Shown: positions 1-38,204 of the stretch, in pieces
Position numbering within the stretch: position 1 is the first letter of the stretch
How the letters are laid out: the number at the start of each line of letters is the position of its first letter
IMG/VR virus record: IMGVR_UViG_3300045988_097215
Coordinates: 1-38,204 of that record
From: a virus
Direction: 5' to 3' (one strand)
DNA: 38,204 nucleotides
Position numbers and translations under genes: made by a program
Notes under the pieces: generated by a model
What the model was told of the DNA's origin: nothing
Databases searched by the model: none
What the model saw: only the letters and a program-made list of their open reading frames with translations

Positions 1-99
1 CACATCTAGGGCATGGATGCATAGCCATAGCCGCACCTCCTTATACTTGCCCACCGTCCTCACCCGCCGGCCATTATGTAGTCCGGCACAGAAAAAAGA
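1..99. repeat. Terminal overlap copy 1, identical to 38106-38204
   Basis: Read directly. The repeat spans the HNH start codon (position 28 here, 38133 in the other copy) and its AAGGAGG SD. Confidence 0.95.
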
Positions 100-120
100 C
101 CGGGGCTTTCGTCCCGATCT
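91..120 (-). terminator. Rho-independent terminator-like hairpin about 60 nt upstream of the HNH/terminase operon
   Basis: Minus-strand RNA reads AGAUCGGG-ACGAAAGC-CCCGGUCU (8-bp stem with one G-U, 8-nt loop). A U-run follows (plus-strand A-run 92-97). Confidence 0.55.
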
Positions 121-130
121 CTTACGCTAT

Positions 131-320
131 CATTATACTACGGAATAGTGTGCCATACTATGCCGTCCTGGGCCTATGGGACAAACGGCACGGACAACCC
201 ATTAAAATCCTATAAAACCCTTAGATAAGGCTATACACCTATACTACCCTATACTATACCGCCTTATCTGATACTTTAATAAAACCATTGTTCCAGTTGT
301 TCCACTTGTCCTTATACTAT
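131..320. repeat. ATACTA (minus strand TAGTAT) short-repeat family
   Basis: Exact ATACTA at 135, 155, 241, 251 and 314; variants at 43, 231 and 271. Three tandem 10-bp units (231-260) lie inside an 8-bp inverted repeat, AGATAAGG 223-230 / CCTTATCT 262-269. Confidence 0.7.
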
Positions 321-491
321 AAAAAACTTAGATATTTAGGGATTTTTTAATAGGGATAAATGGGACAAAGCCCGGACAAGTGGCACAACTTTGAAAGTTT
401 GTCCCGAAAATGCGCGTACCTGGGCGCGCCCTCACCCCGCAGGTAGGGACAAAAAAAGGGACAAGATCGCTCTTGTCCCGAAAGTTGTCCC
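176..491. repeat. GGGACAA/TTGTCCC iteron-like array in the non-coding hub
   Basis: Exact GGGACAA at 178, 362, 446 and 458. Exact TTGTCCC at 399, 473 and 485. Variants: CGGACAA at 191 and 373, GGCACAA at 382, TTGTTCC at 288 and 297, TTGTCCT at 306, AGGGAT at 338 and 352. Confidence 0.75.
451..479 (-). terminator. Rho-independent terminator ending the early/regulatory transcript after the HIRAN gene
   Basis: Minus strand reads GGGACAAG-AGCGAT-CTTGTCCC (8-bp stem, 6-nt loop) followed by seven U. It lies 14 nt past the HIRAN stop codon. Confidence 0.75.
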
Positions 492-492
492 G

Positions 493-1158
493 CTATTTTT
501 CCTCAATTCTGAGGTGCACCCAGAAGGGTGGATCAGCCTGCTCCATCTCGTAGACCTCGTCGCCGTCCTCGGTGTAGCCCGTGCAGCTGACGTACTTGTA
601 CGGCCCGCCGCCCATGCCGGGCCTTATCCGGCCTATACGGTCCTCTTGGATGAGCCGCAGGAGGTGGGCGCAGGATCCGGCCTTAATGTATCCGACGTGC
701 ACCCCATCCACTAGGACCCGGATCGCGTTCTGGTCGTGAGGGTTGTCCGGCTCAGGGACTAGCTCCGCGGTCCGGGGGTAAAAATTGTACTTCCAGACGC
801 GCTCCTCGACTAGTTCCTCCTCAATTAGCCGCTTTTTCCCATAGCTGTACTCCTTGTTTATCTCGGCCAGTTCCAGGAGGTTGTTCAGCCGGTAGCCGAT
901 ACCGGTCACCTTGTAGGTCCTGTATGGGTGCTGTGCGTCCGGGAGCTGCATTTTGCCCGGAAGCGGCTCCTCCGCCTTCGGTTCAACAGGGGCAGCCGGG
1001 GCCTCTACCGGGACGGCTGGCGGCTCTTGCGCGGCCAGTCTCTTTATGCCTAGTACAATGGCCCGGGGCAGGTCCCACACCAGCGCCCGGCAGGGCCACC
1101 ACCACCAGCCGATAAACGTCCACCACAAAAAACCATGCTTTCCCTTACTCATGCGCAC
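493..1158 (-). CDS. Membrane-anchored HIRAN-domain protein
   Basis: 221 aa with ATG behind a GGGAGG SD. N-terminal Trp-rich hydrophobic segment (FLWWTFIGWWWWP) and a Pro/Ala/Glu linker. HIRAN-like signature: KVTGIGYR...EPDNPHDQNAIRVLVDGVHVGYI. Confidence 0.75.
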   Translation of the reverse strand: MRMSKGKHGFLWWTFIGWWWWPCRALVWDLPRAIVLGIKRLAAQEPPAVPVEAPAAPVEPKAEEPLPGKMQLPDAQHPYRTYKVTGIGYRLNNLLELAEINKEYSYGKKRLIEEELVEERVWKYNFYPRTAELVPEPDNPHDQNAIRVLVDGVHVGYIKAGSCAHLLRLIQEDRIGRIRPGMGGGPYKYVSCTGYTEDGDEVYEMEQADPPFWVHLRIEEK

Positions 1159-1204
1159 CTCCCATTTTTTTTGGAATTATATCAAGTTTGCAATTAAAGA
1201 GCAA

Positions 1205-1324
1205 TTATTTATTGCACCTGCTACAGGCCAGCAGCTTATAAATTAAATCCAGCAGGTCTGCGTCCTTGCAGAGGTCCACCGCGTCCTTTATCATCTCTTT
1301 CAGGGCTTCCAGCATCTCGTCCAT
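1205..1324 (-). CDS. Small acidic protein of 39 aa, absent from the ORF track
   Basis: ATG at 1324 lies 5 nt after AAGGAGG, and TAA is at 1205-1207. Sequence: MDEMLEALKEMIKDAVDLCKDADLLDLIYKLLACSRCNK. It sits immediately upstream of the HIRAN gene. Confidence 0.55.
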   Translation of the reverse strand: MDEMLEALKEMIKDAVDLCKDADLLDLIYKLLACSRCNK

Positions 1325-1394
1325 GGGTACCTCCTTGGTGGATTATATATTTTTCTGGGTTATGGATTTTTCTGTATATTAGGTTTACAATTAG

Positions 1395-1423
1395 ATTGTA
1401 GTTACACATTCGGCTCTCCGCAA
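1395..1423 (-). promoter_or_regulatory. Candidate promoter for the 39-aa/HIRAN operon
   Basis: Minus strand reads TTGCGG (1418-1423), 17-nt spacer, TACAAT (1395-1400), within the AT-rich divergent intergenic region 1325-1499. Confidence 0.3.
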
Positions 1424-1499
1424 TACTCAAATCTGATTATTCCTGTCCCATTTACGATAAAAACGCACCATTCTTGCGAAAAACGGAGAAAAACTGAAA

Positions 1500-1883
1500 A
1501 TGCTACACAAAAAACTCTCTCGACTGAAAACGCAGGCGGGTATGTCCGCCCAGCAGATCGCAGAAAAGGGGCACGTCCCGGCCAGTACCGTGAGCCGTGT
1601 CCTATCCGGTCAGACGCCGGACCCTTCTTTCCTTACTGTCTCCTCTATGGTGCAAGCTCTCGGCGGCTCCCTTGATGAGCTGGCGGGCCTGCCGCCTCCA
1701 GCGCCACCAGAGGCGGGGGAGGGGTCCTATACGCTCCTGCTGGCGGAAAAAGATGCCCGCCTGGCGGACAAGGACCGCACGATCCGCTGGCTGGTCGTGG
1801 CCTGCTTTGTCCTGGGCCTTGTTGCCTTCGGGTACATAATCTGGGACGCCGCCCACCCAGGCGCCGGACTGATACAATATTAA
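1500..1883 (+). CDS. Membrane-anchored XRE-family HTH protein
   Basis: 127 aa. N-terminal HTH (SAQQIAEKGHVPASTVSRVLSG), Pro-rich linker and C-terminal TM helix (WLVVACFVLGLVAFGYIIW). It is one of only three plus-strand genes. Confidence 0.8.
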   Translation: MLHKKLSRLKTQAGMSAQQIAEKGHVPASTVSRVLSGQTPDPSFLTVSSMVQALGGSLDELAGLPPPAPPEAGEGSYTLLLAEKDARLADKDRTIRWLVVACFVLGLVAFGYIIWDAAHPGAGLIQY

Positions 1884-1889
1884 ACAGAC

Positions 1890-1922
1890 AAAAAAGCCGG
1901 GGAGAAATCCCCGGCTATTTTT
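1890..1922. terminator. Bidirectional rho-independent terminator between convergent genes
   Basis: AGCCGGGGA-GAAA-TCCCCGGCT (9-bp stem, GNRA loop) flanked by an A-run upstream and a T-run downstream. Confidence 0.85.
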
Positions 1923-2319
1923 ATGCCAGCTGGCGGAGGGCCTGAGCGTGCAGGCGGTGGACCTGCCTCCAGCTGTAGTTCATGGCCACGCATATCTCTT
2001 CCCACGTCATACCCTCGATATATCGGTGCCGGAGCATTTGCCGCAGCGTCGGGTCCAGAGTCTCGATAGCCTCCTCCACGGCCAGCTGTTCGGCGGCCAG
2101 CTCTTGCAGCTGGGTCCAGTATTTTTCCCGGAGCTGCATGGTGCTGTCCGCTGCCCGCTCCTGGGCGCTGCTGCCTTGGGCCGTGTGCGCTCTGGGCATA
2201 TCGGATATCTCGGGGGATTGCAGCCCGTAGACCCTGGCCTCCAGTTCGGCCAGCAGGCCCTTGGTCTGTTCAATCTCCTTTTTAATGTGGCGGTACTGTT
2301 TCAGCCGCTCCTTGGTCAT
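1921..2319 (-). CDS. Sigma-70 region-4-like transcriptional regulator (RinA/DUF1492-like putative late-gene activator)
   Basis: 132 aa. N-terminal coiled coil and C-terminal LRQMLRHRYIEGMTWEEICVAMNYSWRQVHRLHAQALRQL, a region-4 HTH pattern. AGGAGG SD. It sits at the end of the replication module. Confidence 0.7.
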   Translation of the reverse strand: MTKERLKQYRHIKKEIEQTKGLLAELEARVYGLQSPEISDMPRAHTAQGSSAQERAADSTMQLREKYWTQLQELAAEQLAVEEAIETLDPTLRQMLRHRYIEGMTWEEICVAMNYSWRQVHRLHAQALRQLA

Positions 2320-2606
2320 GCGCTTTCCTCCTCTGCCAGATAGTACTCAGCGCCGGCCCCTTCATACATACGGACCGGGACGCCGTTGATGTTTAGCGCG
2401 TTAGCTTTCAGCTGCTGGATCAGCTCGTCCGGGTCCTCTGCGGCTATCCAGAGGGTGGTCCATGCGCCCCTGGAGAGCATGACCGCGTCGGGCCCTTTGC
2501 CGTCGTGCCTGTCTCGGTATCGCATTACGGCCGCGCAGACCGTCTTAATCAGTGCCCAGGCGGCCGCAGCCGCTTCCGGGTCTCTATTTGCTGATATGAT
2601 ATACAT
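2316..2606 (-). CDS. Hypothetical protein
   Basis: 96 aa, GGAGGAG SD, ATGA overlap with the downstream gene. Confidence 0.7.
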   Translation of the reverse strand: MYIISANRDPEAAAAAWALIKTVCAAVMRYRDRHDGKGPDAVMLSRGAWTTLWIAAEDPDELIQQLKANALNINGVPVRMYEGAGAEYYLAEEESA

Positions 2607-2608
2607 CT

Positions 2609-3976
2609 TTATACTCCTCCCGTGATTTCCAGCCGCAGGGCCTCAATGGCCGCCGCCTGGCCCTTGTCTTTATTGGTCAGTGCTTTCAGCACCCTCTCGT
2701 CATGGGTCCCCTTTAAGATCAGATGATATATCCGGCAGACGTGCTGCTGCCCCGGCCGGTTTAGCCGCTCGTTGGCCTGCTGGTAGAGCTCCAGGGACCA
2801 GGTGAGGCCAAACCAGACGATTATGTGCCCGCCTTCCTGGAGGTTGAGCCCGTGGCCGATGCTGGCGGGATGGGCCAGGGCCACCGGTATCTCGCCCCGG
2901 TTCCAGGCGTCAATGTCCTCCGGGCGGTCCAGGGAGCGGCAGGGGATCCGTTGCCGGATCCTCTCCGCGTCGTGCTTGTAGGCGTATAGCACCAGCACAT
3001 TTTCCCCGCCGGCCTCCTCCAGCAGCTCCTCCAGGGCGTCCAGCTTGATGTCGTGGAGCGGGTGCACCCCGCCGCCCGCGTCATAGATAGCCCCGTTGGC
3101 AAATTGCAGGAGTTTGTTGGTCAGGGCCGCCTCCGTGCCGGCCACGATCTGTCCCTCAGCGTCCAGGCACTCCAGCACCTTGTCCCGCTCAAATTGCTTG
3201 TATTTTTTCAGCAGAGACGGGGGAGGGGGGAGCTCTATGTCCTCGTAAATTTGCCCGGGGAGCCGTAGCACGTCCTCCTTGCGGATGCTCATGCAGATAT
3301 CGCTCAGCCGGTCGTAGACCTCCGCCTCGGCGCCGTCCTTGGGTCGGTAGCTGTAGACTATATGGCCGTTCATTTTCTCGGGTACCAGGTACTTGGAGCG
3401 GAAGGCGGTCAGCGTGCGGCCCAGCCGCTCGCCCTGGTCCAGGAGATAGATTTCCGGCCATAAGTCCTCCAGGCCGTTGGGCCGGGGGGTGCCAGTTAGG
3501 CCGATAATCCGGCGGATCCGGCCGCGCACCCGGCGGAGAGCCTTCCACCGCTTGGCGCTGGCGGCCTTGAAGCTGCTCAGCTCGTCGATCACCACAATAC
3601 CAAAGGGCCAGCCCCCGGGCCATTTTTGCATAAGCTCCACCAGCCAGACAACGTTCTCCCGGTTTATGACGTAGACGTCCGCCGGAGCCATGAGCGCCGC
3701 GTACCGCTGTTTGACGGTGCCCATCACCCGGGAGACGCGGAGGTGGCGCAGGTGCTCCCACTTGTCCGCCTCTTTGCTCCAGGTGTTTTCCGCCACTCGC
3801 TTGGGGGCGATCACCAGGACAGGGCCGTCCTCCAGGTAGTCGTTGAGCAGCCGGTCGACGGCGGTCAGCGTGGTCACGGTCTTGCCCGTCCCCATCCCCC
3901 AGAACAGGGCGCCCGCCGGGTGGCCGGTTATCCAGTCAATCCCAGCCTGCTGGTGCGGGTACGGGGAGAATTTCAT
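2609..3976 (-). CDS. SNF2-family helicase
   Basis: Motif I GMGTGKT, motif II VVIDELS, motif III LTGTP, and C-terminal helicase motifs (AHPASIGHGLNLQ). Confidence 0.9.
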   Translation of the reverse strand: MKFSPYPHQQAGIDWITGHPAGALFWGMGTGKTVTTLTAVDRLLNDYLEDGPVLVIAPKRVAENTWSKEADKWEHLRHLRVSRVMGTVKQRYAALMAPADVYVINRENVVWLVELMQKWPGGWPFGIVVIDELSSFKAASAKRWKALRRVRGRIRRIIGLTGTPRPNGLEDLWPEIYLLDQGERLGRTLTAFRSKYLVPEKMNGHIVYSYRPKDGAEAEVYDRLSDICMSIRKEDVLRLPGQIYEDIELPPPPSLLKKYKQFERDKVLECLDAEGQIVAGTEAALTNKLLQFANGAIYDAGGGVHPLHDIKLDALEELLEEAGGENVLVLYAYKHDAERIRQRIPCRSLDRPEDIDAWNRGEIPVALAHPASIGHGLNLQEGGHIIVWFGLTWSLELYQQANERLNRPGQQHVCRIYHLILKGTHDERVLKALTNKDKGQAAAIEALRLEITGGV

Positions 3977-4352: not shown

Positions 4353-5134
4353 GGTGTCGCCTCCTTGATGCGCTGTTTTGCGGTCTTGTAGTATCCGGGG
4401 TCTTGCTCGATGCCTATAAAATGGCGGCCGGTACGCTTGCAGGCCACTCCCGTGGACCCGCTGCCCATGCAGCTGTCCAGTACCGTCTCGCCCTCGTTGG
4501 TGTAGGTCTTGACAAGATACTCTAAAAGTGGTACAGGCTTCTGGGTTGGATGGTGGCCGCGTTCGGTGCCAAATTGCAGCACGTTTTTGGGCCAGTTTTT
4601 ATACTTCGGTCGGTACTCCTCCAGCAGGGTGCTCATCTTATAGACGCTTTCCCCCTGCGGTGCCCGCTTGCGTCGGACCTTAGCGCCCACGATCTCCTGG
4701 AGGCCTTGGGGGTTATAGGTCCCGTGCTGGCGGTAAAATACGCATATATCCTCGACGCGCCTCATGGGCTGGTATCGTGCGTAGGTAAAGCCGGTTGGCT
4801 GGTTTTTCAGCCAATACCAGCAGTACCGGAAGGCTTTCGGGTTGCTGCCGATCAGCTGCGTAGTAAACGGCTGGGCGGCGAAAAGCACCGCGGCACCGTC
4901 GGGTTTCAGGACCCGGTTGTACTCCGCCCAAAGCTCGGGGAGCGGGAGCACGGTATCCCATGCGCAGTCCGTCGTGCCATACGGCGGGTCGCAGAGTATC
5001 AAGTCGACCGATCCGGCCGGAATGTCTTTCATCAGTTTCATGCAGTCACCTTGTAGTAGTTGCAGTGGTATCAGTCCTTTAGGATATTTCCCCTTTGTCC
5101 GTATAGGCTTTATCCTTGGTCCAGGATCGTCCAC
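4349..5134 (-). CDS. DNA methyltransferase, N6A/N4C type, beta-class motif order
   Basis: ILCDPPYG (motif IV) precedes DSCMGSGSTG (motif I). The start is uncertain: GTG at 5134 overlaps the VRR-NUC 3' end, while ATG at 5041 would remove the conserved LQGDC box. Confidence 0.85.
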   Translation of the reverse strand: MDDPGPRIKPIRTKGKYPKGLIPLQLLQGDCMKLMKDIPAGSVDLILCDPPYGTTDCAWDTVLPLPELWAEYNRVLKPDGAAVLFAAQPFTTQLIGSNPKAFRYCWYWLKNQPTGFTYARYQPMRRVEDICVFYRQHGTYNPQGLQEIVGAKVRRKRAPQGESVYKMSTLLEEYRPKYKNWPKNVLQFGTERGHHPTQKPVPLLEYLVKTYTNEGETVLDSCMGSGSTGVACKRTGRHFIGIEQDPGYYKTAKQRIKEATP

Positions 5135-5400: not shown

Positions 5401-5621
5401 AGCACCGCGCCTCCTTTTTGCAGCAGCTGGATATACCTGTTAAGGTACCAGGCCGCTTTCTCCAGATCCTCCACTGTCCGGGAGGGGTCCTTTTTCCCGG
5501 CTCGGGCCACATACTTGACAACGTTGCCCAGGTGGTAGGGCAGCCGCTGGTCCTCGATAAAATCAATCACTTCAATGCGCCCGCTGGTGTAGTGCGCGGG
5601 GTGGTTTACTGCGTCGTCCAT
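5397..5621 (-). CDS. DUF3310-family protein
   Basis: 74 aa. HPAHYTSGRIEVIDFI...GNVVKYVARAGKK...EDLEKAAWYL matches the DUF3310 pattern. Confidence 0.75.
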   Translation of the reverse strand: MDDAVNHPAHYTSGRIEVIDFIEDQRLPYHLGNVVKYVARAGKKDPSRTVEDLEKAAWYLNRYIQLLQKGGAVL

Positions 5622-5622
5622 G

Positions 5623-7977
5623 CTAGTCTCTCCTTTCGTAGTACCGCTGGCGGCCGTATGGCCGTATCGTGATTCTGTCTTTTTTTGACCGGCGCCAGTC
5701 TTTCAGACCGGCCATGATGTCTCGGATTTCCTTGCCCGCGTACCGGTCGTACCGGTCCGGGTTGCCGCCTAGGGCCTCCGCCCATATCTCCATGGTGCAG
5801 ACGATCCGGCGCTTTACGGTGCCCTCGCCGCCTGTCTCCAGCCATGCCCGGCGGGCGTATAGGTCCATAGCGTCCCAGTCCTCCGGCAGCAGCCTGTCCA
5901 GGTAGTCGGCCACCAGGCCGGCCCGGGGGTTTTCCTCCTCGTATAGGTCCTGGATCTCTCGGGCCGCTTCCTCCAGCTCGCGGGGAAGAAATAGCTCCTC
6001 GCCTGCCTTGTATAGCTCCACGGCCTCGCCCCATATCTGCCGCACCGTCTCAGGGGTCAGCTCGTCCCAGATGCTATGGGTGGGTGTTCCGGGGGTGTCC
6101 ACTACCCAGAAGCGCCGGTTTCCGGTTGCGTCCCGGAGGAACTGGGTCTCGTTGGTCGTGGCCACAAAGATGCACTGCCGCGGGAACTCTTGCAGCCGGC
6201 GGCCATAAGCCGGCCGGAAGCGGTCCACCTGCTTGGATATGTACAGTTTGATGGTCTCGGCCTCCGCTTTGCGCATACCGGCCAGCTCGCCCACCTCCAT
6301 GATCCACACACCCATAACCTGCTCGTAGGCGTCCTTGCCCTGCATGGTCGTGAAGGTATCACTAAACCACTTTCCGCCCAGGCGGGCGATCAGGGCCGAC
6401 TTGCCCAGGCCTTGCCGGCCCCGGAGGGTCAGCATATAGTCAAATTTGCAGCCGGGGCGGTAGATCCTGGCCACCGCGGCGACCAGCGCCTTGCGGGTGA
6501 CTGCTCGGGTGTAGGGGCTGTCCTCGGCCCCCAGGTAGTCGATCAGCAGCGTCTCCACTCTGGGCACCCCGTCCCATGTGCAGCTGTCAAGGTACTCACG
6601 GACCGGGTGGAAGGACCCCTCCTGGGCGACTACGTTCACGGCGTCAAAAATGCGATCCTTGCCGCTGATGCCGTAAAAGCGCTCCAGGTAGTAGCGCAGG
6701 GCGGCGTCGTCGGCGTCCGTCCATTGGCTGGGGCTTTTGACCTGTCGCCAGGGTAGGCTTGACAGCGTGACGATGTTGTGCTCCATTTCGTTGATTGCAA
6801 TCCGGCCGGCCAGCTTGGGATCGTGCCGGAGGATGATCACCACGTTCTCAATGGTCTGAGCGATTCCGCCCTTTTCGGTGATTTTGAGCTGCTGCCTCCA
6901 GTCTGCATTTTCGACCGGCGCCGCGAAGTCCTCTGACGCCTCAGCCACTCGATCAGAGACCAGCTGGGCCTTGACCCGTTTGTCCTCTGCGGCCAGCTGG
7001 GCCATGGCCTTGTAGGACGGCCGGGAACTTGCCGGGGTGTCCGGAGCGGTGTCCGCGTCCAGGGCGCCGTACTTGTGCAGCCGGACCAGGTCCCAGGCGT
7101 TGCAGAGCTGCCCGCTGGCCGGATCCGTGGCATGGTGGGAAAATGAGAACTTATCCTCGTAGACCACCACGCCGGCGGCGGTGCTGCCCTCGGTGTAGGT
7201 GTACCGTCCGTCCTCGCAGGGCTGATAGGTGGGCACATACTCCGCGATAGCCTCCTGGACGGTGTAAGCTCGGCAGAAGGCGCCAACCAGGCCGCCCTTC
7301 TCCAGGGGGTCCTTTTGCTTGGCGGCGGTGCGTTTGACGATCTCGGCCACCCGGCTGCTCATGGGCCAGCTTGACACGTCTTGCCAGTTGTGGTATGTGG
7401 CCAGGACCGCGTCGGGGTCCAAAAAAGCCCCATCCAGGTGATGGTACACATAGGCCCCGTCCTGGGAGCAGCTAGGCCAGTACATGACCCGCTGGGGCTG
7501 GTAGGTGGTGTCGTCGAATTTGTCAATACCCAGGGTATTGGCCACCCTGCGGCCTATGGCCTGGTACTCGTCGGGCGTGACGTTGCGGGCCAGGGGCACC
7601 ACAAGACGCAGGCGGGGCTTCTCGGGGGTGTGCTTATGGGTGGAGTACACCGCCGCGGCGTTGCCGTAGAGGAGCCCCCAGTCGTCCCAGAGCGCCCCGT
7701 CCGCGTAGTCAGCGTCCAGGCAGAGCACGGACCGGAAGCGGATATCTGAGCGGTTGCCGTTGTTGCAGTAGCCGCCCACAAAGCCGCCCACGTCTTTGAT
7801 GTTGCTCTGCTGGTCTTTGGTCATGGCGCGATACTCAGCCAGGGTCTCAGACGTCCGGGTGGGTTGGGCCATACGGTCCAGCAGCTCGGACCAGAGGACC
7901 GGCTTGTTTTTCCAGGTCTTGGTCTTGCGGCTGTTGCCCAGGGCTATGTCCAGTTTTTTGTCGTTCAGGACGTCCAT
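5623..7977 (-). CDS. Primase/helicase, VirE (virulence-associated protein E) / P4-D5-like
   Basis: 784 aa. N-terminal primase-like region and C-terminal P-loop (LRGRQGLGKS) with Walker B-like VWIMEVGEL. AAGGAGG SD. Confidence 0.8.
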   Translation of the reverse strand: MDVLNDKKLDIALGNSRKTKTWKNKPVLWSELLDRMAQPTRTSETLAEYRAMTKDQQSNIKDVGGFVGGYCNNGNRSDIRFRSVLCLDADYADGALWDDWGLLYGNAAAVYSTHKHTPEKPRLRLVVPLARNVTPDEYQAIGRRVANTLGIDKFDDTTYQPQRVMYWPSCSQDGAYVYHHLDGAFLDPDAVLATYHNWQDVSSWPMSSRVAEIVKRTAAKQKDPLEKGGLVGAFCRAYTVQEAIAEYVPTYQPCEDGRYTYTEGSTAAGVVVYEDKFSFSHHATDPASGQLCNAWDLVRLHKYGALDADTAPDTPASSRPSYKAMAQLAAEDKRVKAQLVSDRVAEASEDFAAPVENADWRQQLKITEKGGIAQTIENVVIILRHDPKLAGRIAINEMEHNIVTLSSLPWRQVKSPSQWTDADDAALRYYLERFYGISGKDRIFDAVNVVAQEGSFHPVREYLDSCTWDGVPRVETLLIDYLGAEDSPYTRAVTRKALVAAVARIYRPGCKFDYMLTLRGRQGLGKSALIARLGGKWFSDTFTTMQGKDAYEQVMGVWIMEVGELAGMRKAEAETIKLYISKQVDRFRPAYGRRLQEFPRQCIFVATTNETQFLRDATGNRRFWVVDTPGTPTHSIWDELTPETVRQIWGEAVELYKAGEELFLPRELEEAAREIQDLYEEENPRAGLVADYLDRLLPEDWDAMDLYARRAWLETGGEGTVKRRIVCTMEIWAEALGGNPDRYDRYAGKEIRDIMAGLKDWRRSKKDRITIRPYGRQRYYERRD

Positions 7978-14579: not shown

Positions 14580-14777
14580 TTAAAAAAAATACGCAGGAAC
14601 TCCCTCGATAGGGATATCAAGCAGCCCGCAGGCTTTCACGATCTCCGCACGGGTCCAGTCTCTGCGGCCGCAGAGCTTAAGGCTCAACGTCCCTCTGCTC
14701 ATTTCCATTTTTTCGGCAAAATCCTCTTGTCGGCCATACTTCTCTTTGATTCGGCCTCTCAGTTTTGCGTACTTCAT
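14580..14777 (-). CDS. Cro-like / DUF739-type HTH regulator (short form, 65 aa)
   Basis: ATG 14777 lies 8 nt after AAGGAGG. Sequence MKYAKLRGRIKEKYGRQEDFAEKMEMSRGTLSLKL...IPIEGVPAYFF. The 108-aa form in the ORF track would run through the promoter and operator. Confidence 0.75.
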   Translation of the reverse strand: MKYAKLRGRIKEKYGRQEDFAEKMEMSRGTLSLKLCGRRDWTRAEIVKACGLLDIPIEGVPAYFF

Positions 14778-14797
14778 GCCATGCTCCTCCTTTCTAT

Positions 14798-14817
14798 AGG
14801 TTGCAATCTTGCAACCT
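14798..14817. promoter_or_regulatory. Palindromic operator-like site O-A
   Basis: AGGTTGCAA-TC-TTGCAACCT has 9-bp perfect arms and the same GTTGCAA-N2-TTGCAAC core as O-B. It lies just downstream of the early promoter -10. Confidence 0.6.
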
Positions 14818-14826
14818 TGTGGCATT

Positions 14827-14855
14827 ACTATATCAATATAATGTTTAATTGTCAA
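14827..14855 (-). promoter_or_regulatory. Early (Cro-side) sigma-70-type promoter
   Basis: Minus strand reads TTGACA (14850-14855), 17-nt spacer, TATAGT (14827-14832). Confidence 0.7.
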
Positions 14856-14896
14856 TACGCTTTTTTGCTTTCTTGCAACATTTTTTCTCTTTTTTG

Positions 14897-14925
14897 TTGC
14901 GCCCATGCAAGCCGGATGGTATAAT
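14897..14925 (+). promoter_or_regulatory. Repressor-side promoter with extended -10
   Basis: TTGCGC (14897-14902), 17-nt spacer, TATAAT (14920-14925) preceded by TGG (TGnTATAAT). AGGAGG lies 7 nt before ATG 14954. Operator half-sites TTGCAACA (14873) and TGTTGCG (14895) flank or overlap the -35. Confidence 0.6.
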
Positions 14926-14953
14926 ATAGTAGACTTAAAAAGGAGGTGAAAAT

Positions 14954-15340
14954 ATGGCAGGATTTAACAGAGTGGCCACAACGGCGGAGCGGATCCAGGA
15001 AGCCATGCGCATCACCGGAAAAACCCAGGCGGACTTGGTACGAGACACGGGGCTCAATAAAGGAACCATTTCCCGGTATATATCCGGAGCGGTGGAACCT
15101 AGACAGGAAGCGGCCATAAAGTTGGCAAAAGCTCTGGACGTGTCGGAGATGTGGCTGTGGGGGTACGATACCCAAAGCACCCGTACCGCGGAGCAAAAAA
15201 AGAACGACGTCCTGGCGTCGGTCGTCGTTAAAATGAGAAAAGATCCAGATTTTTTGGATGTGGTGGAGCAGCTCGCAGAGCTGCCGAAGGAGCAATATGA
15301 GGCAGTTAAAAACCTTTTAAGTGCCCTCGTGCAAAAGTAA
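14954..15340 (+). CDS. CI-like repressor (XRE HTH, no S24 peptidase domain)
   Basis: 128 aa. HTH KTQADLVRDTGLNKGTISRYISG. Divergent from the Cro-like gene across the promoter/operator region. Confidence 0.85.
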   Translation: MAGFNRVATTAERIQEAMRITGKTQADLVRDTGLNKGTISRYISGAVEPRQEAAIKLAKALDVSEMWLWGYDTQSTRTAEQKKNDVLASVVVKMRKDPDFLDVVEQLAELPKEQYEAVKNLLSALVQK

Positions 15341-15545
15341 TTTTAGTATAAAATCCAGTAAATCCTGGTCAGTCGTCTTGCAGACTATATCTACAATTGC
15401 GGATTGCAAGGGATTCAATGGGTTCACGCCCTTTCGATGGAAACATATGTACGCTTTCACGATAGGGTCATAGTAGCACAAACAATCAAAATTGACAATA
15501 CAGTCAGAAAAATACAGAAGAATCAGACAAAAGGGGTAGAGGAGT

Positions 15546-17108
15546 ATGTATCAAACGGGCAGCACGCTATTAGCGGATACATGGATTATATATTTAAGAA
15601 AGAGCCGCCAGGACGACCCGCGGGAGACTGTGGAGGAGGTGCTGGAGAAGCACGAGACCATGCTCCAGGAGTACGCGCAGCGGGAGCTGGGTGGCCGGAT
15701 ACCGGAGGATAATATATACCGGGAGGTCGTCTCCGGGGAAAGCATCGACGACCGGGTCGAGATTAAAAAGGTACTGAGCCGCCTGGAGGACCCAGCAGTC
15801 AAGGGCGTGCTGGTGGTGGAGCCTCAGCGTCTCAGCCGCGGCGACTTGGAGGACTGCGGCCGGCTGATAAACTCCTTCCGGTTCACTCACACCCAGGTGG
15901 TCACCCCTTACATGACCTACGACCTGGAAAACAAAATGGAAAGAAAGTTTTTCCAGGACGAACTTCTACGCGGCCGGGACTATCTTGAATACACGAAGGA
16001 GATCCTTTTCCGCGGCCGGGTCGCAGCCGTAAAGCGTGGGTGCTATATCGGCAATTATGCCCCATACGGATATAAAAAAATCAAGATAGGCAAGGACCAC
16101 ACCCTGGAGATCATAGAGGAACAGGCCGAAGTGGTCCGCCTGGTATTTGACTGGTACACCAAAGAGCAGCTATCCCCCTACCGTATAGCTGAGCGGATCA
16201 ATAAAATGGGCGTGCCGGCGCCTCGTGGGAAGAAGTGGGTCAAGGATACGATCCGGGTCATGCTGCGGAATGAGCACTACGTCGGGATGGTTGTATTTAA
16301 TAAGCATAAAACCACTCAGGTGATGGAGGGCGGGGAAATCGTCACTAAATGCCTCTCCCAGCCAGAGGATGAGGTGATTATCGCGGAGGGCAAGCAGCCC
16401 GCTATTATCAGCAGGGAGACCTGGGACGCGGCCCAGAAGCTCGTCGCCCGGAACCCTCGGGAGCGGCATACCTATGCGCTGAAAAATCCATACAGCACTA
16501 TCCTGGTATGCGGGAAATGCGGCAAGGCATTATACCAGCACCCATACAAGCACGCGGAGGACCGCTATGAGTGCCGAACACGGCCGCGCTGCTATAAGTC
16601 GGTGCCCGTCTCCTTGATCGACGACGCCGTCCTCACGTCCCTGGAGCAAGCAGAGCTGCCCGCGCTAAAGCTAAAAGTCAAAAACGGCGACGGGAACGCG
16701 GCGAAGATCCAGCAGCGGCTCCTGGATAAACTGCAAAAGCAAATGGAAGAATACCGGGCCCAGGAGGACAAGCAGTATGAGCTGCTGGAGACCGGCCGGT
16801 ATACGCAGGACCTTTTTGACCGACGGAACGCAGCCCTCCGGGCAAAAATTGAAGATTGTCAAGCGGCGATATATAAGGCAAAAGCGGAGATGCCGGCGAC
16901 CGTGGACTATGCGGAGAGGGTCACCTCTTTGGAAGCGGCCATTGCGATCCTAAAGGATCCAGACGCCACGCCGGAACAGAAGAATAAACTGTTAAAAGTG
17001 ATTGTGGACCGGATAGAGTATACCGGGAAGGCCAGCCTGCACACGAACCGAAAAGGCAAGCCGAAGGGTGATAATTCCTTTACTTTGGAGGTTTTTCTGC
17101 GGCTATAA
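15546..17108 (+). CDS. int: Large serine recombinase (integrase)
   Basis: 520 aa. Resolvase-type N-terminus with catalytic-Ser context IYLRKSRQDD, recombinase domain (APYGYKK), zinc ribbon (CGKCGKAL...YECRTRPRC) and C-terminal coiled coil. Confidence 0.9.
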   Translation: MYQTGSTLLADTWIIYLRKSRQDDPRETVEEVLEKHETMLQEYAQRELGGRIPEDNIYREVVSGESIDDRVEIKKVLSRLEDPAVKGVLVVEPQRLSRGDLEDCGRLINSFRFTHTQVVTPYMTYDLENKMERKFFQDELLRGRDYLEYTKEILFRGRVAAVKRGCYIGNYAPYGYKKIKIGKDHTLEIIEEQAEVVRLVFDWYTKEQLSPYRIAERINKMGVPAPRGKKWVKDTIRVMLRNEHYVGMVVFNKHKTTQVMEGGEIVTKCLSQPEDEVIIAEGKQPAIISRETWDAAQKLVARNPRERHTYALKNPYSTILVCGKCGKALYQHPYKHAEDRYECRTRPRCYKSVPVSLIDDAVLTSLEQAELPALKLKVKNGDGNAAKIQQRLLDKLQKQMEEYRAQEDKQYELLETGRYTQDLFDRRNAALRAKIEDCQAAIYKAKAEMPATVDYAERVTSLEAAIAILKDPDATPEQKNKLLKVIVDRIEYTGKASLHTNRKGKPKGDNSFTLEVFLRL

Positions 17109-37689: not shown

Positions 37690-38133
37690 TTAAATCTTCC
37701 GCAGGTCGATCACTCCGGGCTCTGCGGATTTCTTGAATTTTTCTGGGTGTCGCTTGTTGTGGCAGGAGGTACAAACGGCCTCAAGGTTTTCCCAGTCCAG
37801 CCGGGCCCCCCAGCCTTTTGCGGTCTGTATCGGATCCTTGTGATGCACCTCGACCGCTAGGCCTGTGCATCCCTCCAGCTTTGCCTGGCACTTGTAGCCA
37901 GCGCGCTGGAGATAGGTCCGCGACAAAAGGCGCCACTCCTTTGACCTGTAAAATGCTAGGTACTTAGGGTCGCGCCTGCGATTATATATACTGTTATACT
38001 TCTGCCTCTTGTAGGCTCGCCGGCGCTCCATAGCCTCAGCGGCTTGAGCCTCTGCGGCTGGCCGGCACCCCTCGCAGTAGGTAACGCCTACGGGGATAAG
38101 CTGCCCACATCTAGGGCATGGATGCATAGCCAT
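37690..38133 (-). CDS. HNH endonuclease (terminase-associated)
   Basis: 147 aa. N-terminal Cys pairs CPRCGQ...CEGC, then EVHHKDPI and NLEAVCTSCHNKRH. AAGGAGG SD. Confidence 0.9.
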   Translation of the reverse strand: MAMHPCPRCGQLIPVGVTYCEGCRPAAEAQAAEAMERRRAYKRQKYNSIYNRRRDPKYLAFYRSKEWRLLSRTYLQRAGYKCQAKLEGCTGLAVEVHHKDPIQTAKGWGARLDWENLEAVCTSCHNKRHPEKFKKSAEPGVIDLRKI

Positions 38134-38204
38134 AGCCGCACCTCCTTATACTTGCCCACCGTCCTCACCCGCCGGCCATTATGTAGTCCGGCACAGAAAA
38201 AAGA
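38106..38204. repeat. Terminal overlap copy 2, identical to 1-99
   Basis: Exact 99-nt identity with the window start. Confidence 0.95.

Follow-up and report, generated by a model that had tools for sequence, protein, structure and literature searches.

A putatively membrane-tethered HIRAN protein with a tail-anchored XRE regulator in an accessory cassette of a gut Clostridia phage: a candidate exclusion module

The stretch of DNA analysed here (the window) comprises positions 1 to 38,204 of the virus record IMGVR_UViG_3300045988_097215 and is the nearly complete genome of a temperate, siphophage-like phage of gut Clostridia that encodes a serine integrase. Near its first end lies a cassette of three genes: a plus-strand gene for an XRE-type regulator with a C-terminal transmembrane (TM) segment (XRE-TM, 1500-1883, 127 aa) and, divergent from it on the minus strand, a gene for a 39-aa protein (pep39, 1205-1324) followed by a gene for a protein with a HIRAN domain (first listed as 493-1158, 221 aa). 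The likely extent of the latter is 493-1152 (219 aa), since the ATG at 1152 is preceded by a ribosome-binding site, GGGAGG (1163-1158), and gene callers start the relatives there. The interpretation tentatively favoured here is that the cassette may be a prophage-expressed accessory (moron) module, in which a DNA-end-capturing protein resembling pneumococcal ThaL is an exclusion cargo and XRE-TM and pep39 form a local switch. An initial annotation, made from the sequence alone, had described the three open reading frames, an AT-rich divergent spacer and terminators on both sides of the unit, and all are present where it placed them; the spacer (1325-1499, 175 bp) has a GC content of 38-42% compared with ~60% around it and in the genome.

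The HIRAN domain is recognised both by sequence and by predicted structure. Pfam HIRAN (PF08797) matches aa 132-172 above its gathering threshold (E=1.1e-7, 32 bits with a cut-off of 24.7), and a precomputed match to this family is present in 91 of the 120 best-listed homologues among the 364 that were found; the tallies of anchors and domains given below come from the same best 120. The part conserved across the homologues (alignment A1) is the C-terminal ~140 residues, and the AlphaFold2 (AF2) model built on this alignment has a predicted local distance difference test (pLDDT) score of ~97 over aa 79-221; the domain, of ~143 aa, carries an insertion and a C-terminal beta extension. The 16 best Foldseek matches in the Protein Data Bank (PDB) comprise HLTF HIRAN and Lp_0118 and nothing else (prob 1.00, E 2e-3 to 2e-2), with TM-scores of 0.42-0.51 (normalised to the target) that are modest because of the insertion and the extra strands, and in BFVD the matches are phage HIRAN proteins. 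The HIRAN domains of HLTF/Rad5 (4S0N, 4XZF, 6KCS) and Lp_0118 (3K2Y) are the best and the only convincing fold matches, and the family profile finds HLTF by sequence as well (E=1.8e-4), so that the HIRAN assignment of the initial annotation is borne out by Pfam, fold and profile together. In comparison with HLTF/Rad5, the window protein has no SNF2 or RING partner, its domain is enlarged by ~30 aa inserted behind strand 1 and by additional strands at the C-terminal end, and it is predicted to be membrane-tethered instead of nuclear, DNA binding likewise being predicted for it. A scan of NCBIfam returned nothing for the HIRAN protein or pep39.

The residues conserved in the family are those of the DNA-binding pocket of HLTF. 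In the profile alignment 'PEPdNphDpnAikV...vgYIKaG' is set against HLTF 'RDPNNPYDKNAIKV...VGHLKKE'; in particular, PEPDNPxDxNAIKV pairs with HLTF DPNNPYDKNAIKV and GYIK with GHLK, the NPxD and GY/HxK motifs thereby being conserved in the window family. N139, D142, Y157 and K159 are invariant and correspond to HLTF N91, D94, H110 and K112 in an alignment numbered by hand, while the counterpart of HLTF Y93 is His in the window protein and Tyr or His in its relatives. HLTF D94 contacts the 3'-OH. Owing to the invariance of the four residues and to their alignment with HLTF, they map onto the 3'-end pocket of the latter, in which a single-stranded dinucleotide is held between Y72 and Y93 (PMC4666394). 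Binding to DNA ends is a property of HIRAN domains (PMC8262856). From sequence and model taken together, the window protein carries a HIRAN domain for which binding of DNA 3' ends is predicted.

The N-terminal anchor of the window protein, FLWWTFIGWWWWPC..., is a Trp-rich helix (AF2 helix 10-42) followed by a Pro/Ala/Glu linker. The Trp-rich segment (aa 10-38) is helical in the AF2 model, yet a Kyte-Doolittle scan calls no TM in it, and the anchor is not a canonical single-pass TM. In the initial annotation both large proteins of the cassette had been given one design, a hydrophobic anchor, a Pro/Ala-rich linker and a DNA-binding module; the DNA-binding modules, the linkers and the TM of the XRE protein are confirmed, whereas the single hydrophobic anchor of the HIRAN protein is not of the kind supposed. 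Among the best 120 homologues the Trp-rich segment HGxLWWLFIGWWWxP is found in 40, a hydrophobic region N-terminal to the HIRAN domain in 27 and an amphipathic N-terminal helix of the MGIFSKLFKK type in many more; some related loci have a C-terminal hydrophobic hairpin or TMs instead, and clear two-helix hairpins occur in relatives. Where the hydrophobic span was scored, its median is 41 aa, the length of a hairpin, and both flanks are net positive in 29 of 49 proteins, which fits a HIRAN domain on the cytoplasmic side. To judge from the sequences of the homologues, membrane tethering is selected for and is achieved via non-homologous anchors. The Pro/Ala linker itself differs among close relatives by tandem copies of PVEAQAV, with ~3 in L003 (6001-6675) and 1 in L002 (6001-6642), two phages described below.

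The genomic position of the relatives is that of a gene of lysogeny modules. From 80 viral and 71 genomic loci, 45 non-redundant ones with a full-length domain were obtained, belonging to Faecousia, Faecalibacterium, Gemmiger, Lachnospiraceae and other gut Clostridia. Of 44 non-redundant loci, 39 have the upstream neighbour of the HIRAN gene on the same strand, separated from it by a median of 32 nt; this neighbour is an XRE/Cro-CI HTH (helix-turn-helix) gene in at least 19, an S24 LexA-like gene in 5 and an ImmA-type M78 peptidase gene in 5. The first gene of notable size downstream encodes an integrase in 21 of 39 cases (12 tyrosine and 9 serine); where no integrase is downstream, there is often a lysin, at the other prophage end. 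The order repressor, HIRAN gene, integrase is found in the majority of the 45 relatives and is the same in pneumococcal phages, where the repressor gene is followed by that of a 304-aa HIRAN protein with a central two-helix hairpin and then by the integrase gene. These transmembrane HIRAN proteins of pneumococcal prophage lysogeny modules were named thaL in 2025 by work on prophages in conflict with transformation that did not study thaL itself (Kwun et al., PMC12637031).

The relationship of the window protein to pneumococcal ThaL (IPP45_00002; 'Phage HIRAN domain protein' of phages 23782 and 11865) is supported by hhalign, in which the family profile A1 matches IPP45_00002 with 97.7% and E=1.6e-12 over 95 columns. 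Both proteins have a basic N-terminus, an anchor, which in the window protein is a putative one, and the HIRAN domain at the C-terminus, they are homologous over the HIRAN core and the GGGPYK/beta extension, and ThaL is likewise prophage-encoded and uncharacterised. In contrast, ThaL has 304 aa, a central two-helix TM hairpin and a repressor-integrase location, while the window protein has a Trp-rich N-terminal anchor, a place at the early/late boundary, its own promoter and a private switch of an XRE protein and a small protein; moreover, tblastn identity between the two is confined to ~40 residues. A search of GenBank phage proteins with the HIRAN protein gave just 8 Streptococcus records, matching in the HIRAN core alone. 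The initial annotation had known of no described system with this composition, a statement that is not supported, as pneumococcal transmembrane HIRAN proteins were already annotated and named thaL (PMC12637031). What is new in the window is the combination of the Trp-rich anchor, the own promoter, the early/late location and the dedicated switch of tail-anchored XRE and small protein, together with the breadth of the HIRAN family in gut Clostridia and the recognition of two companion families, XRE-TM and pep39-like.

The accessory nature of the HIRAN gene emerges from the comparison of sister phages. Three near-identical phages (L001-L003) keep all three genes, with neighbouring proteins 97-100% identical, and the identity of their HIRAN proteins to that of the window is 95% in L001, 71% in L002 and 67% in L003. 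The drop in DNA identity between the window and L002/L003 is confined to window positions 200-1000, a swapped block made up of the linker, the HIRAN domain and the non-coding sequence 3' of the gene; outside it the anchor, the pep39 gene and the XRE gene have 94-100% DNA identity. Between these HIRAN alleles the synonymous divergence (dS) is 1.3-1.5 and the ratio of nonsynonymous to synonymous divergence (dN/dS) is 0.16, and such a ratio with a saturated dS points to old alleles that are under purifying selection and are exchanged through recombination; positive selection on the HIRAN allele was considered and rejected on these values. In a second lineage (L157-L162) the cassette stands at the same place, with an XRE protein 70% identical, a 36-aa protein ~53-61% identical and a HIRAN protein 53% identical to those of the window.

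A member of the L157 lineage, L163, has lost the HIRAN gene with its promoter by a deletion that leaves the XRE-TM and 36-aa genes intact; the remnant in L163 4189-4697 is the last 11 HIRAN codons (PYYVRLEVEEK). In the distant members L167 and L175 (SNF2 ~83%) the same slot holds XRE-TM and a pep39-like gene with another cargo, namely a lipoprotein of function-unknown phage families in L167 and small HTH genes in L175. Insertions are found also between the late regulator gene and the XRE-TM gene, a CI-like HTH gene and a 72-aa gene in L001 (4536-5205) and HicB-like, HTH_26 and 51-aa genes in the L157 lineage (5425-6245). These genome comparisons mark the slot as a hot spot for insertions, in which the HIRAN gene is dispensable and accessory, undergoes allele exchange and is one cargo among several that can replace one another. 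An autonomous accessory module had been proposed in the initial annotation, and the unit indeed behaves as such, as it is kept in two lineages and its HIRAN gene is lost in L163, gives way to other cargo in L167 and L175 and has its own promoter and terminator. The expectation that HIRAN-TM and HTH-TM genes would form a conserved neighbourhood held in part: the pair is kept within this phage group, but elsewhere the HIRAN gene follows soluble XRE/CI repressors, and a widely conserved pair was rejected.

The promoter of the HIRAN gene lies on the minus strand in the 46-nt spacer between the pep39 and HIRAN genes and has the form TTGCTC-17-TGnTATAAT (1204-1199, with TG at 1184-1183 and TATAAT at 1181-1176). 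Its extended -10, TGATATAAT, does not differ between the two phage lineages, in contrast to the diverged bases around it, and a promoter scan calls the matching site of L157 (4697-4669, TTGCCT-17-TATAAT, TG present). Directly after the HIRAN stop codon there is a minus-strand terminator, a nested hairpin with a T-run (446-491; 458-479 in the terminator scan), whose folding energy is -26.7 kcal/mol (z -5.9). At the other side, a bidirectional terminator (1890-1922, stem 1895-1916, T-runs on both strands) serves XRE-TM on the plus strand and the late regulator on the minus strand; its folding gives -20.2 and -22.3 kcal/mol (z -5.4 and -4.6 relative to shuffles), and L157 has an equivalent bidirectional hairpin after its XRE-TM gene. 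Morons are promoter-gene-terminator insertions, defined for HK97/lambda-like phages. The HIRAN gene, having its own promoter and its own terminator, falls within the sequence definition of a moron, and it resembles one also in lying between conserved phage genes, in being missing in close relatives and in being exchanged as a block; the presence or absence between conserved flanking genes is documented by the L163 deletion, the L167/L175 cargo and the L002/L003 swap. Nevertheless, the dedicated divergent regulator pair means that it is not a bare constitutive moron gene.

The regulator of the cassette is an XRE protein anchored by its tail. Pfam HTH_3 matches it with E=1.1e-8 (35.4 bits, threshold 23), HTH_31 with 33.3 bits (threshold 27) and PHROG repressor families with 4e-6; these agree with the XRE HTH that had been read from the sequence. 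The protein consists of the HTH (aa 6-62), a Pro/Ala linker, a charged helix 'LLAEKDARLADKDR' (KDKWI helix), a 19-residue TM (W97-W115, nt 1788-1844) and a conserved extracytoplasmic tail of 12 aa, DAAHPGAGLIQY. The family tail has the form D-x6-G-x-(I/F)-R-Y, in which D116 and G123 are invariant and the terminal (I/F)RY is conserved. Having a single TM and just 12 residues outside, XRE-TM is without a sensor domain. An exhaustive search found 907 relatives at E<=1e-3 and 122 clusters at E<=1e-10, the latter mostly collinear over residues 1-127, in proteins of 117-145 aa (P0131-P0278; loci L167-L205); a TM is called at the equivalent position in 25 of 39 IMG/VR loci of the XRE family, and the dN/dS of XRE-TM relative to L157 is 0.25. 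The XRE query also matches two giant proteins, 18 times along P0130 (2565 aa) and 10 times along P0251 (1462 aa), each time in a separate stretch, and both hence contain many tandem XRE-like HTH units.

An integrase is the next large gene in 20 of 26 non-redundant IMG/VR loci of the XRE family (10 serine and 10 tyrosine), and likewise for P0126, so the family usually holds the repressor position of lysogeny modules. No characterised member of the tail-anchored XRE family was found, and a search of GenBank phage proteins with XRE-TM returned one unannotated gut metagenome phage. These proteins appear to form a class of membrane-anchored repressors of prophages that is as yet uncharacterised. 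Membrane-bound regulators are otherwise represented by BcrR of E. faecalis, an XRE HTH protein with 4 TM, and by ToxR/CadC, whereas SinR/SinI is a repressor-antagonist pair. XRE-TM shares with BcrR, ToxR and CadC a cytoplasmic HTH tethered to the membrane, in its case by a C-terminal TM, and the cassette shares with SinR/SinI an XRE-type regulator encoded beside a small helical potential antagonist; in contrast with BcrR and SinI/SinR there is no homology beyond the HTH, and the XRE-TM family is found mostly at the prophage repressor position.

pep39 is a 39-aa acidic helical protein with the family motif C-x-D-x-x-LLDLIYKLL. Its open reading frame is kept in all relatives of the window cassette with a dN/dS of 0.17-0.20 and, by this sequence evidence, is a real gene. 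The same motif returns in small proteins (34-55 aa) from the regulatory regions of these phages of Clostridia, with two of them in some loci; they are encoded in L169 (869-988 and 3393-3503), L095 (5447-5575 and 2907-3011), L175 (3693-3824), L170 (1748-1888) and L018 (4207-4320). pep39 itself has no match in Pfam or PHROGs, scans of 12 such proteins with both libraries gave no consistent family, and an identity as Spo0E-like or SinI-like was dropped, there being no profile match. pep39-like and XRE-TM genes are divergent neighbours in five lineages, in L169 without any cargo, while most HIRAN relatives are without a pep39 neighbour. XRE-TM and pep39 are, on the sequences compared, best seen as a portable local switch that recurs with different cargo.

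In the divergent region a perfect palindrome, TACAAT-TAG-ATTGTA (1386-1400), occurs as the sole copy in the window. A candidate XRE promoter, TGGATT-17-TACAAT (1363-1368 and 1386-1391), is placed on the plus strand and a candidate pep39 promoter, TTGCGG-17-TACAAT (1423-1418 and 1400-1395), on the minus strand. The window and the L157 lineage share a conserved T[GT]GATT-17/18-TACAAT, and the scan calls the L157 copy (4840-4869). Since one palindrome arm is the -10 box of the candidate XRE promoter and the other could be that of the opposite promoter, mutually exclusive promoters and autoregulation are suggested, with weak statistics, as at least one such palindrome arises in 15 of 100 shuffles. 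An inverted-repeat scan of five XRE/pep39 intergenic regions gave no operator-sized repeat.

The cassette occupies the early/late boundary of the genome, as the initial annotation had supposed. The window ends share an exact direct overlap of 99 nt (1-99 and 38106-38204), by which the window is a circular assembly, and the HNH gene (37690-38133, minus strand) has its 5' end, with the first codons, in positions 1-28; the cassette is consequently directly upstream of the HNH-terS-terL late operon, in which terS and terL are also on the minus strand. On its other side is the gene of an ArpU/RinA-like sigma-r4 late regulator (1921-2319, minus strand), found by library scans, so that the slot lies exactly between the late regulator gene and the late operon. 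The early region, with an SNF2 helicase and a VapE-like primase, is encoded on the minus strand; a strand survey confirmed the reported break in the minus-strand operon and traced it to the XRE gene, the only plus-strand one locally, all flanking early and late genes being on the minus strand. The lysogeny module of the window is at 14580-17108, away from the cassette, and comprises a Cro-like HTH gene (14580-14906, minus strand), a CI-like XRE gene (14954-15340, plus strand) and the serine integrase gene (15546-17108, plus strand). In L158, a GIY-YIG open reading frame (1599-2330, 243 aa, weak Pfam match) that is not in L157 stands between terS and terL and is probably a homing endonuclease gene.

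The non-coding stretch from the cassette to the HNH gene (29-445) borders the cassette and contains an array of 7-mers. The GGGACAA array (178-491, both orientations) holds 7 of the 11 copies of the window, with copies within 29-445 at 178, 362 and 399, and the HIRAN terminator is composed of four GGGACAA/TTGTCCC copies; being built from clustered 7-mers, this terminator may also be a protein-binding array. Compared over window 29-492, L002 6643-7101, L163 4189-4697 and L175 1826-2400, the 7-mer varies by phage, being TAGACAA in L002/L003, GGAACAA in L163 and GGTGACA in L175; the HNH, terS and late regulator of L002 are 98-100% identical to those of the window despite the changed 7-mer. The repeats of the array could be iterons, sites of late promoters or cos/terS sites. 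Another GC-rich hairpin, again followed by a T-run (95-120, minus strand, -15.4 kcal/mol, z -3.05) is ~70 nt upstream of the HNH start codon and could be a terminator/attenuator before the late operon or part of a cos region. Rfam and tRNA scans of the window were empty, window 1-2400 had no match among GenBank phages in a DNA similarity search, and GenBank phage searches gave no cultured relative for the HIRAN or the XRE-TM protein.

In the mechanism proposed, transcription of the HIRAN gene would run from an extended -10 promoter to a terminator that are both its own, and the ThaL-like protein would be made in the lysogen and wait at the inner membrane face. The Trp-rich anchor and the flexible Pro/Ala linker would hold the HIRAN domain at the cytoplasmic face of the membrane, where it may capture the free 3' end of entering linear DNA, such as the cos ends of a superinfecting phage and possibly transforming single strands; the capture would block circularisation or replication, with superinfection exclusion or defence as the result. 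XRE-TM probably represses the divergent promoters via the palindrome over their -10 boxes, pep39 may act as its antagonist, and membrane anchoring could be a route by which envelope signals reach the switch, for example through regulated proteolysis. We infer that exclusion of, or defence against, entering linear DNA is the most economical function. For bacterial Hip modules, the detection of invading phages by their DNA ends has already been suggested as the task of the HIRAN domain (PMC8262856).

A membrane-associated exclusion role would also fit, by analogy, the place of the relatives, which share an operon with a CI-type repressor and precede the integrase. Exclusion genes of lysogeny modules include those for Ltp (S. 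thermophilus TP-J34) and Sie2009 (lactococcal P335 phages), which are of one kind. The HIRAN relatives occupy the same repressor-integrase slot as the ltp-type superinfection exclusion (sie) genes, which are transcribed in the prophage and encode membrane-tethered proteins (PMC3952083). Ltp is a small, membrane-tethered protein whose gene is transcribed in the prophage, dispensable and allelically variable (PMC3952083), and the lipoprotein that L167 carries in the slot after XRE-TM and pep39 is a further parallel to it. In contrast, Ltp and Sie2009 have no sequence or fold relationship to the HIRAN protein of the window, and Ltp acts outside the membrane on the tape-measure protein, whereas the HIRAN domain should act inside, on DNA.

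Several observations weigh against the exclusion reading. The thaL-type gene is known by name and position and is uncharacterised, so that thaL is a name only, and scans of Pfam, PHROGs, NCBIfam and PADLOC gave no homology to a characterised Sie or defence protein. In PADLOC, aa 132-173 match the candidate PDC-M03B weakly and at the level of the domain (E=1.2e-3 to 4e-3), and neither the open reading frame list nor Pfam revealed in or near the cassette the HipA-like kinase partner that PDC-M03 has. A zinc ribbon replaces the membrane anchor in ~8 of the best 120 homologues. With regard to expression, the scan of window 1-3000 called no sigma-70 promoter, the promoter and operator calls other than that of the HIRAN gene have weak -35 boxes and a 6+6 palindrome of a kind present in 15% of shuffles, and the HIRAN gene lies on the lytic strand, which makes lytic expression by read-through possible despite the terminator at 1890-1922. 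Finally, the HIRAN gene of the window is outside the lysogeny module, ~14 kb from the CI-integrase gap (15341-15545, 205 bp); this gap, in which relatives carry the HIRAN gene, is empty.

Among other explanations, the HIRAN protein might be a factor of lysogeny maintenance or decision, either as a membrane-tethered sensor of 3' ends, arising from damage or on incoming transforming single strands, that feeds into induction or as a block to the 'chromosomal curing' of the prophage through transformation, which is considered unlikely. The 3' end of transforming single strands enters first, and the cassette has its own XRE switch; the HIRAN gene is in an operon with CI/ImmA-type regulators and an integrase in most relatives. 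On the other hand, the only visible link to repressors is adjacency, the window gene is detached from the CI/Cro/int module, and the hosts, Oscillospiraceae and Lachnospiraceae, are not known to be naturally competent. The study on the conflict of prophages with transformation named thaL but did not test it (PMC12637031).

A service of the HIRAN protein to the DNA of its own phage, through end protection after injection, circularisation or tethering of replication or packaging at the membrane, is quite unlikely. Its gene is immediately upstream of the repeat array and HNH-terS-terL, its domain belongs to those that bind DNA ends (PMC8262856), and the block swapped in L002/L003 holds both the HIRAN domain and the 7-mers, which change from GGGACAA to TAGACAA. 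However, the 45 other loci have the gene by the repressor or integrase and not by packaging genes, L163, L167 and L175 are without the gene and yet have a repeat array and an intact packaging module, in L157 the GGGACAA repeats are unchanged with a HIRAN protein 53% identical, and a protein made only after infection cannot guard the ends at entry. The phages with repeats and no HIRAN gene led to rejection of the notion that HIRAN reads the adjacent 7-mers as a general rule, and the repeats kept by L157 counted against it a second time.

The cassette as a toxin-antitoxin (TA) or abortive infection (Abi) module, with the membrane-active, Trp-rich HIRAN protein as a toxic effector triggered by DNA ends and pep39 and/or XRE-TM as antidote or regulator, is decidedly improbable. 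With an XRE regulator, a small acidic protein and a larger effector, the cassette resembles tripartite TA and Abi loci in its arrangement; moreover, HIRAN domains are found in HipA-type modules and in the PADLOC candidate PDC-M03, and the insertions near the cassette in sister phages include HicB-like and TacA-like antitoxin-type genes. Against it, the protein has no kinase, nuclease or pore-forming domain and HIRAN is without known enzymatic activity, pep39 and XRE-TM occur without the HIRAN gene (L163, L169), most HIRAN relatives have no pep39 beside them, and the PADLOC matches are at domain level with E ~1e-3. The modules HipN/HipL and PDC-M03 are comparable with the window protein in their HIRAN domains, proposed to recognise phage DNA ends (PMC8262856), but the window has no HipA-like kinase or HipS, and those proteins are soluble and chromosomal.

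The least supported alternative, raised in the initial annotation and very improbable, is that XRE-TM governs the sigma-like late regulator encoded beside it, either tethering it in the manner of an anti-sigma factor or repressing late transcription, with HIRAN as an incidental passenger: the two genes are convergent on a common terminator and are both kept in every member of this phage group, but 2-3 genes are inserted between them in L001 and the L157 lineage, most XRE-TM family members adjoin integrases with no sigma-like gene nearby, the Pfam scan gave no anti-sigma domain, the HTH is of the normal DNA-binding kind, and the palindrome near the XRE-TM promoter is found nowhere else in the window.

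Exclusion by capture of DNA ends, the reading preferred here, can be extended to a joint claim that is rather doubtful as a whole: ThaL-like proteins would be a mechanistically new exclusion class that, on the cytoplasmic side of the membrane, caps the 3' end of DNA leaving the entry channel (phage cos ends or the leading 3' end of transforming single strands), tail-anchored XRE proteins would be a new class of membrane-coupled prophage repressors that, by being released or destroyed at the membrane, pass envelope events on to gene switching, and the LLDLIYKLL proteins would be their antagonists. HIRAN is the best understood protein module for the recognition of a free DNA 3' end, and several hundred membrane-tethered HIRAN proteins, in the exclusion/immunity slot of prophages of dominant gut Clostridia and pneumococci, suggest that incoming DNA might be stopped at the membrane from within. 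In the window the system is compact (~1.5 kb) and self-regulated, and related phages furnish natural controls in a deletion variant, in swapped alleles and in other cargo. Two uncharacterised families that resemble parts of prophage switches come to light as well, the tail-anchored XRE proteins and the small proteins of 35-45 aa; if the membrane anchoring of a repressor does carry information, this would bear on the induction decisions of gut prophages.

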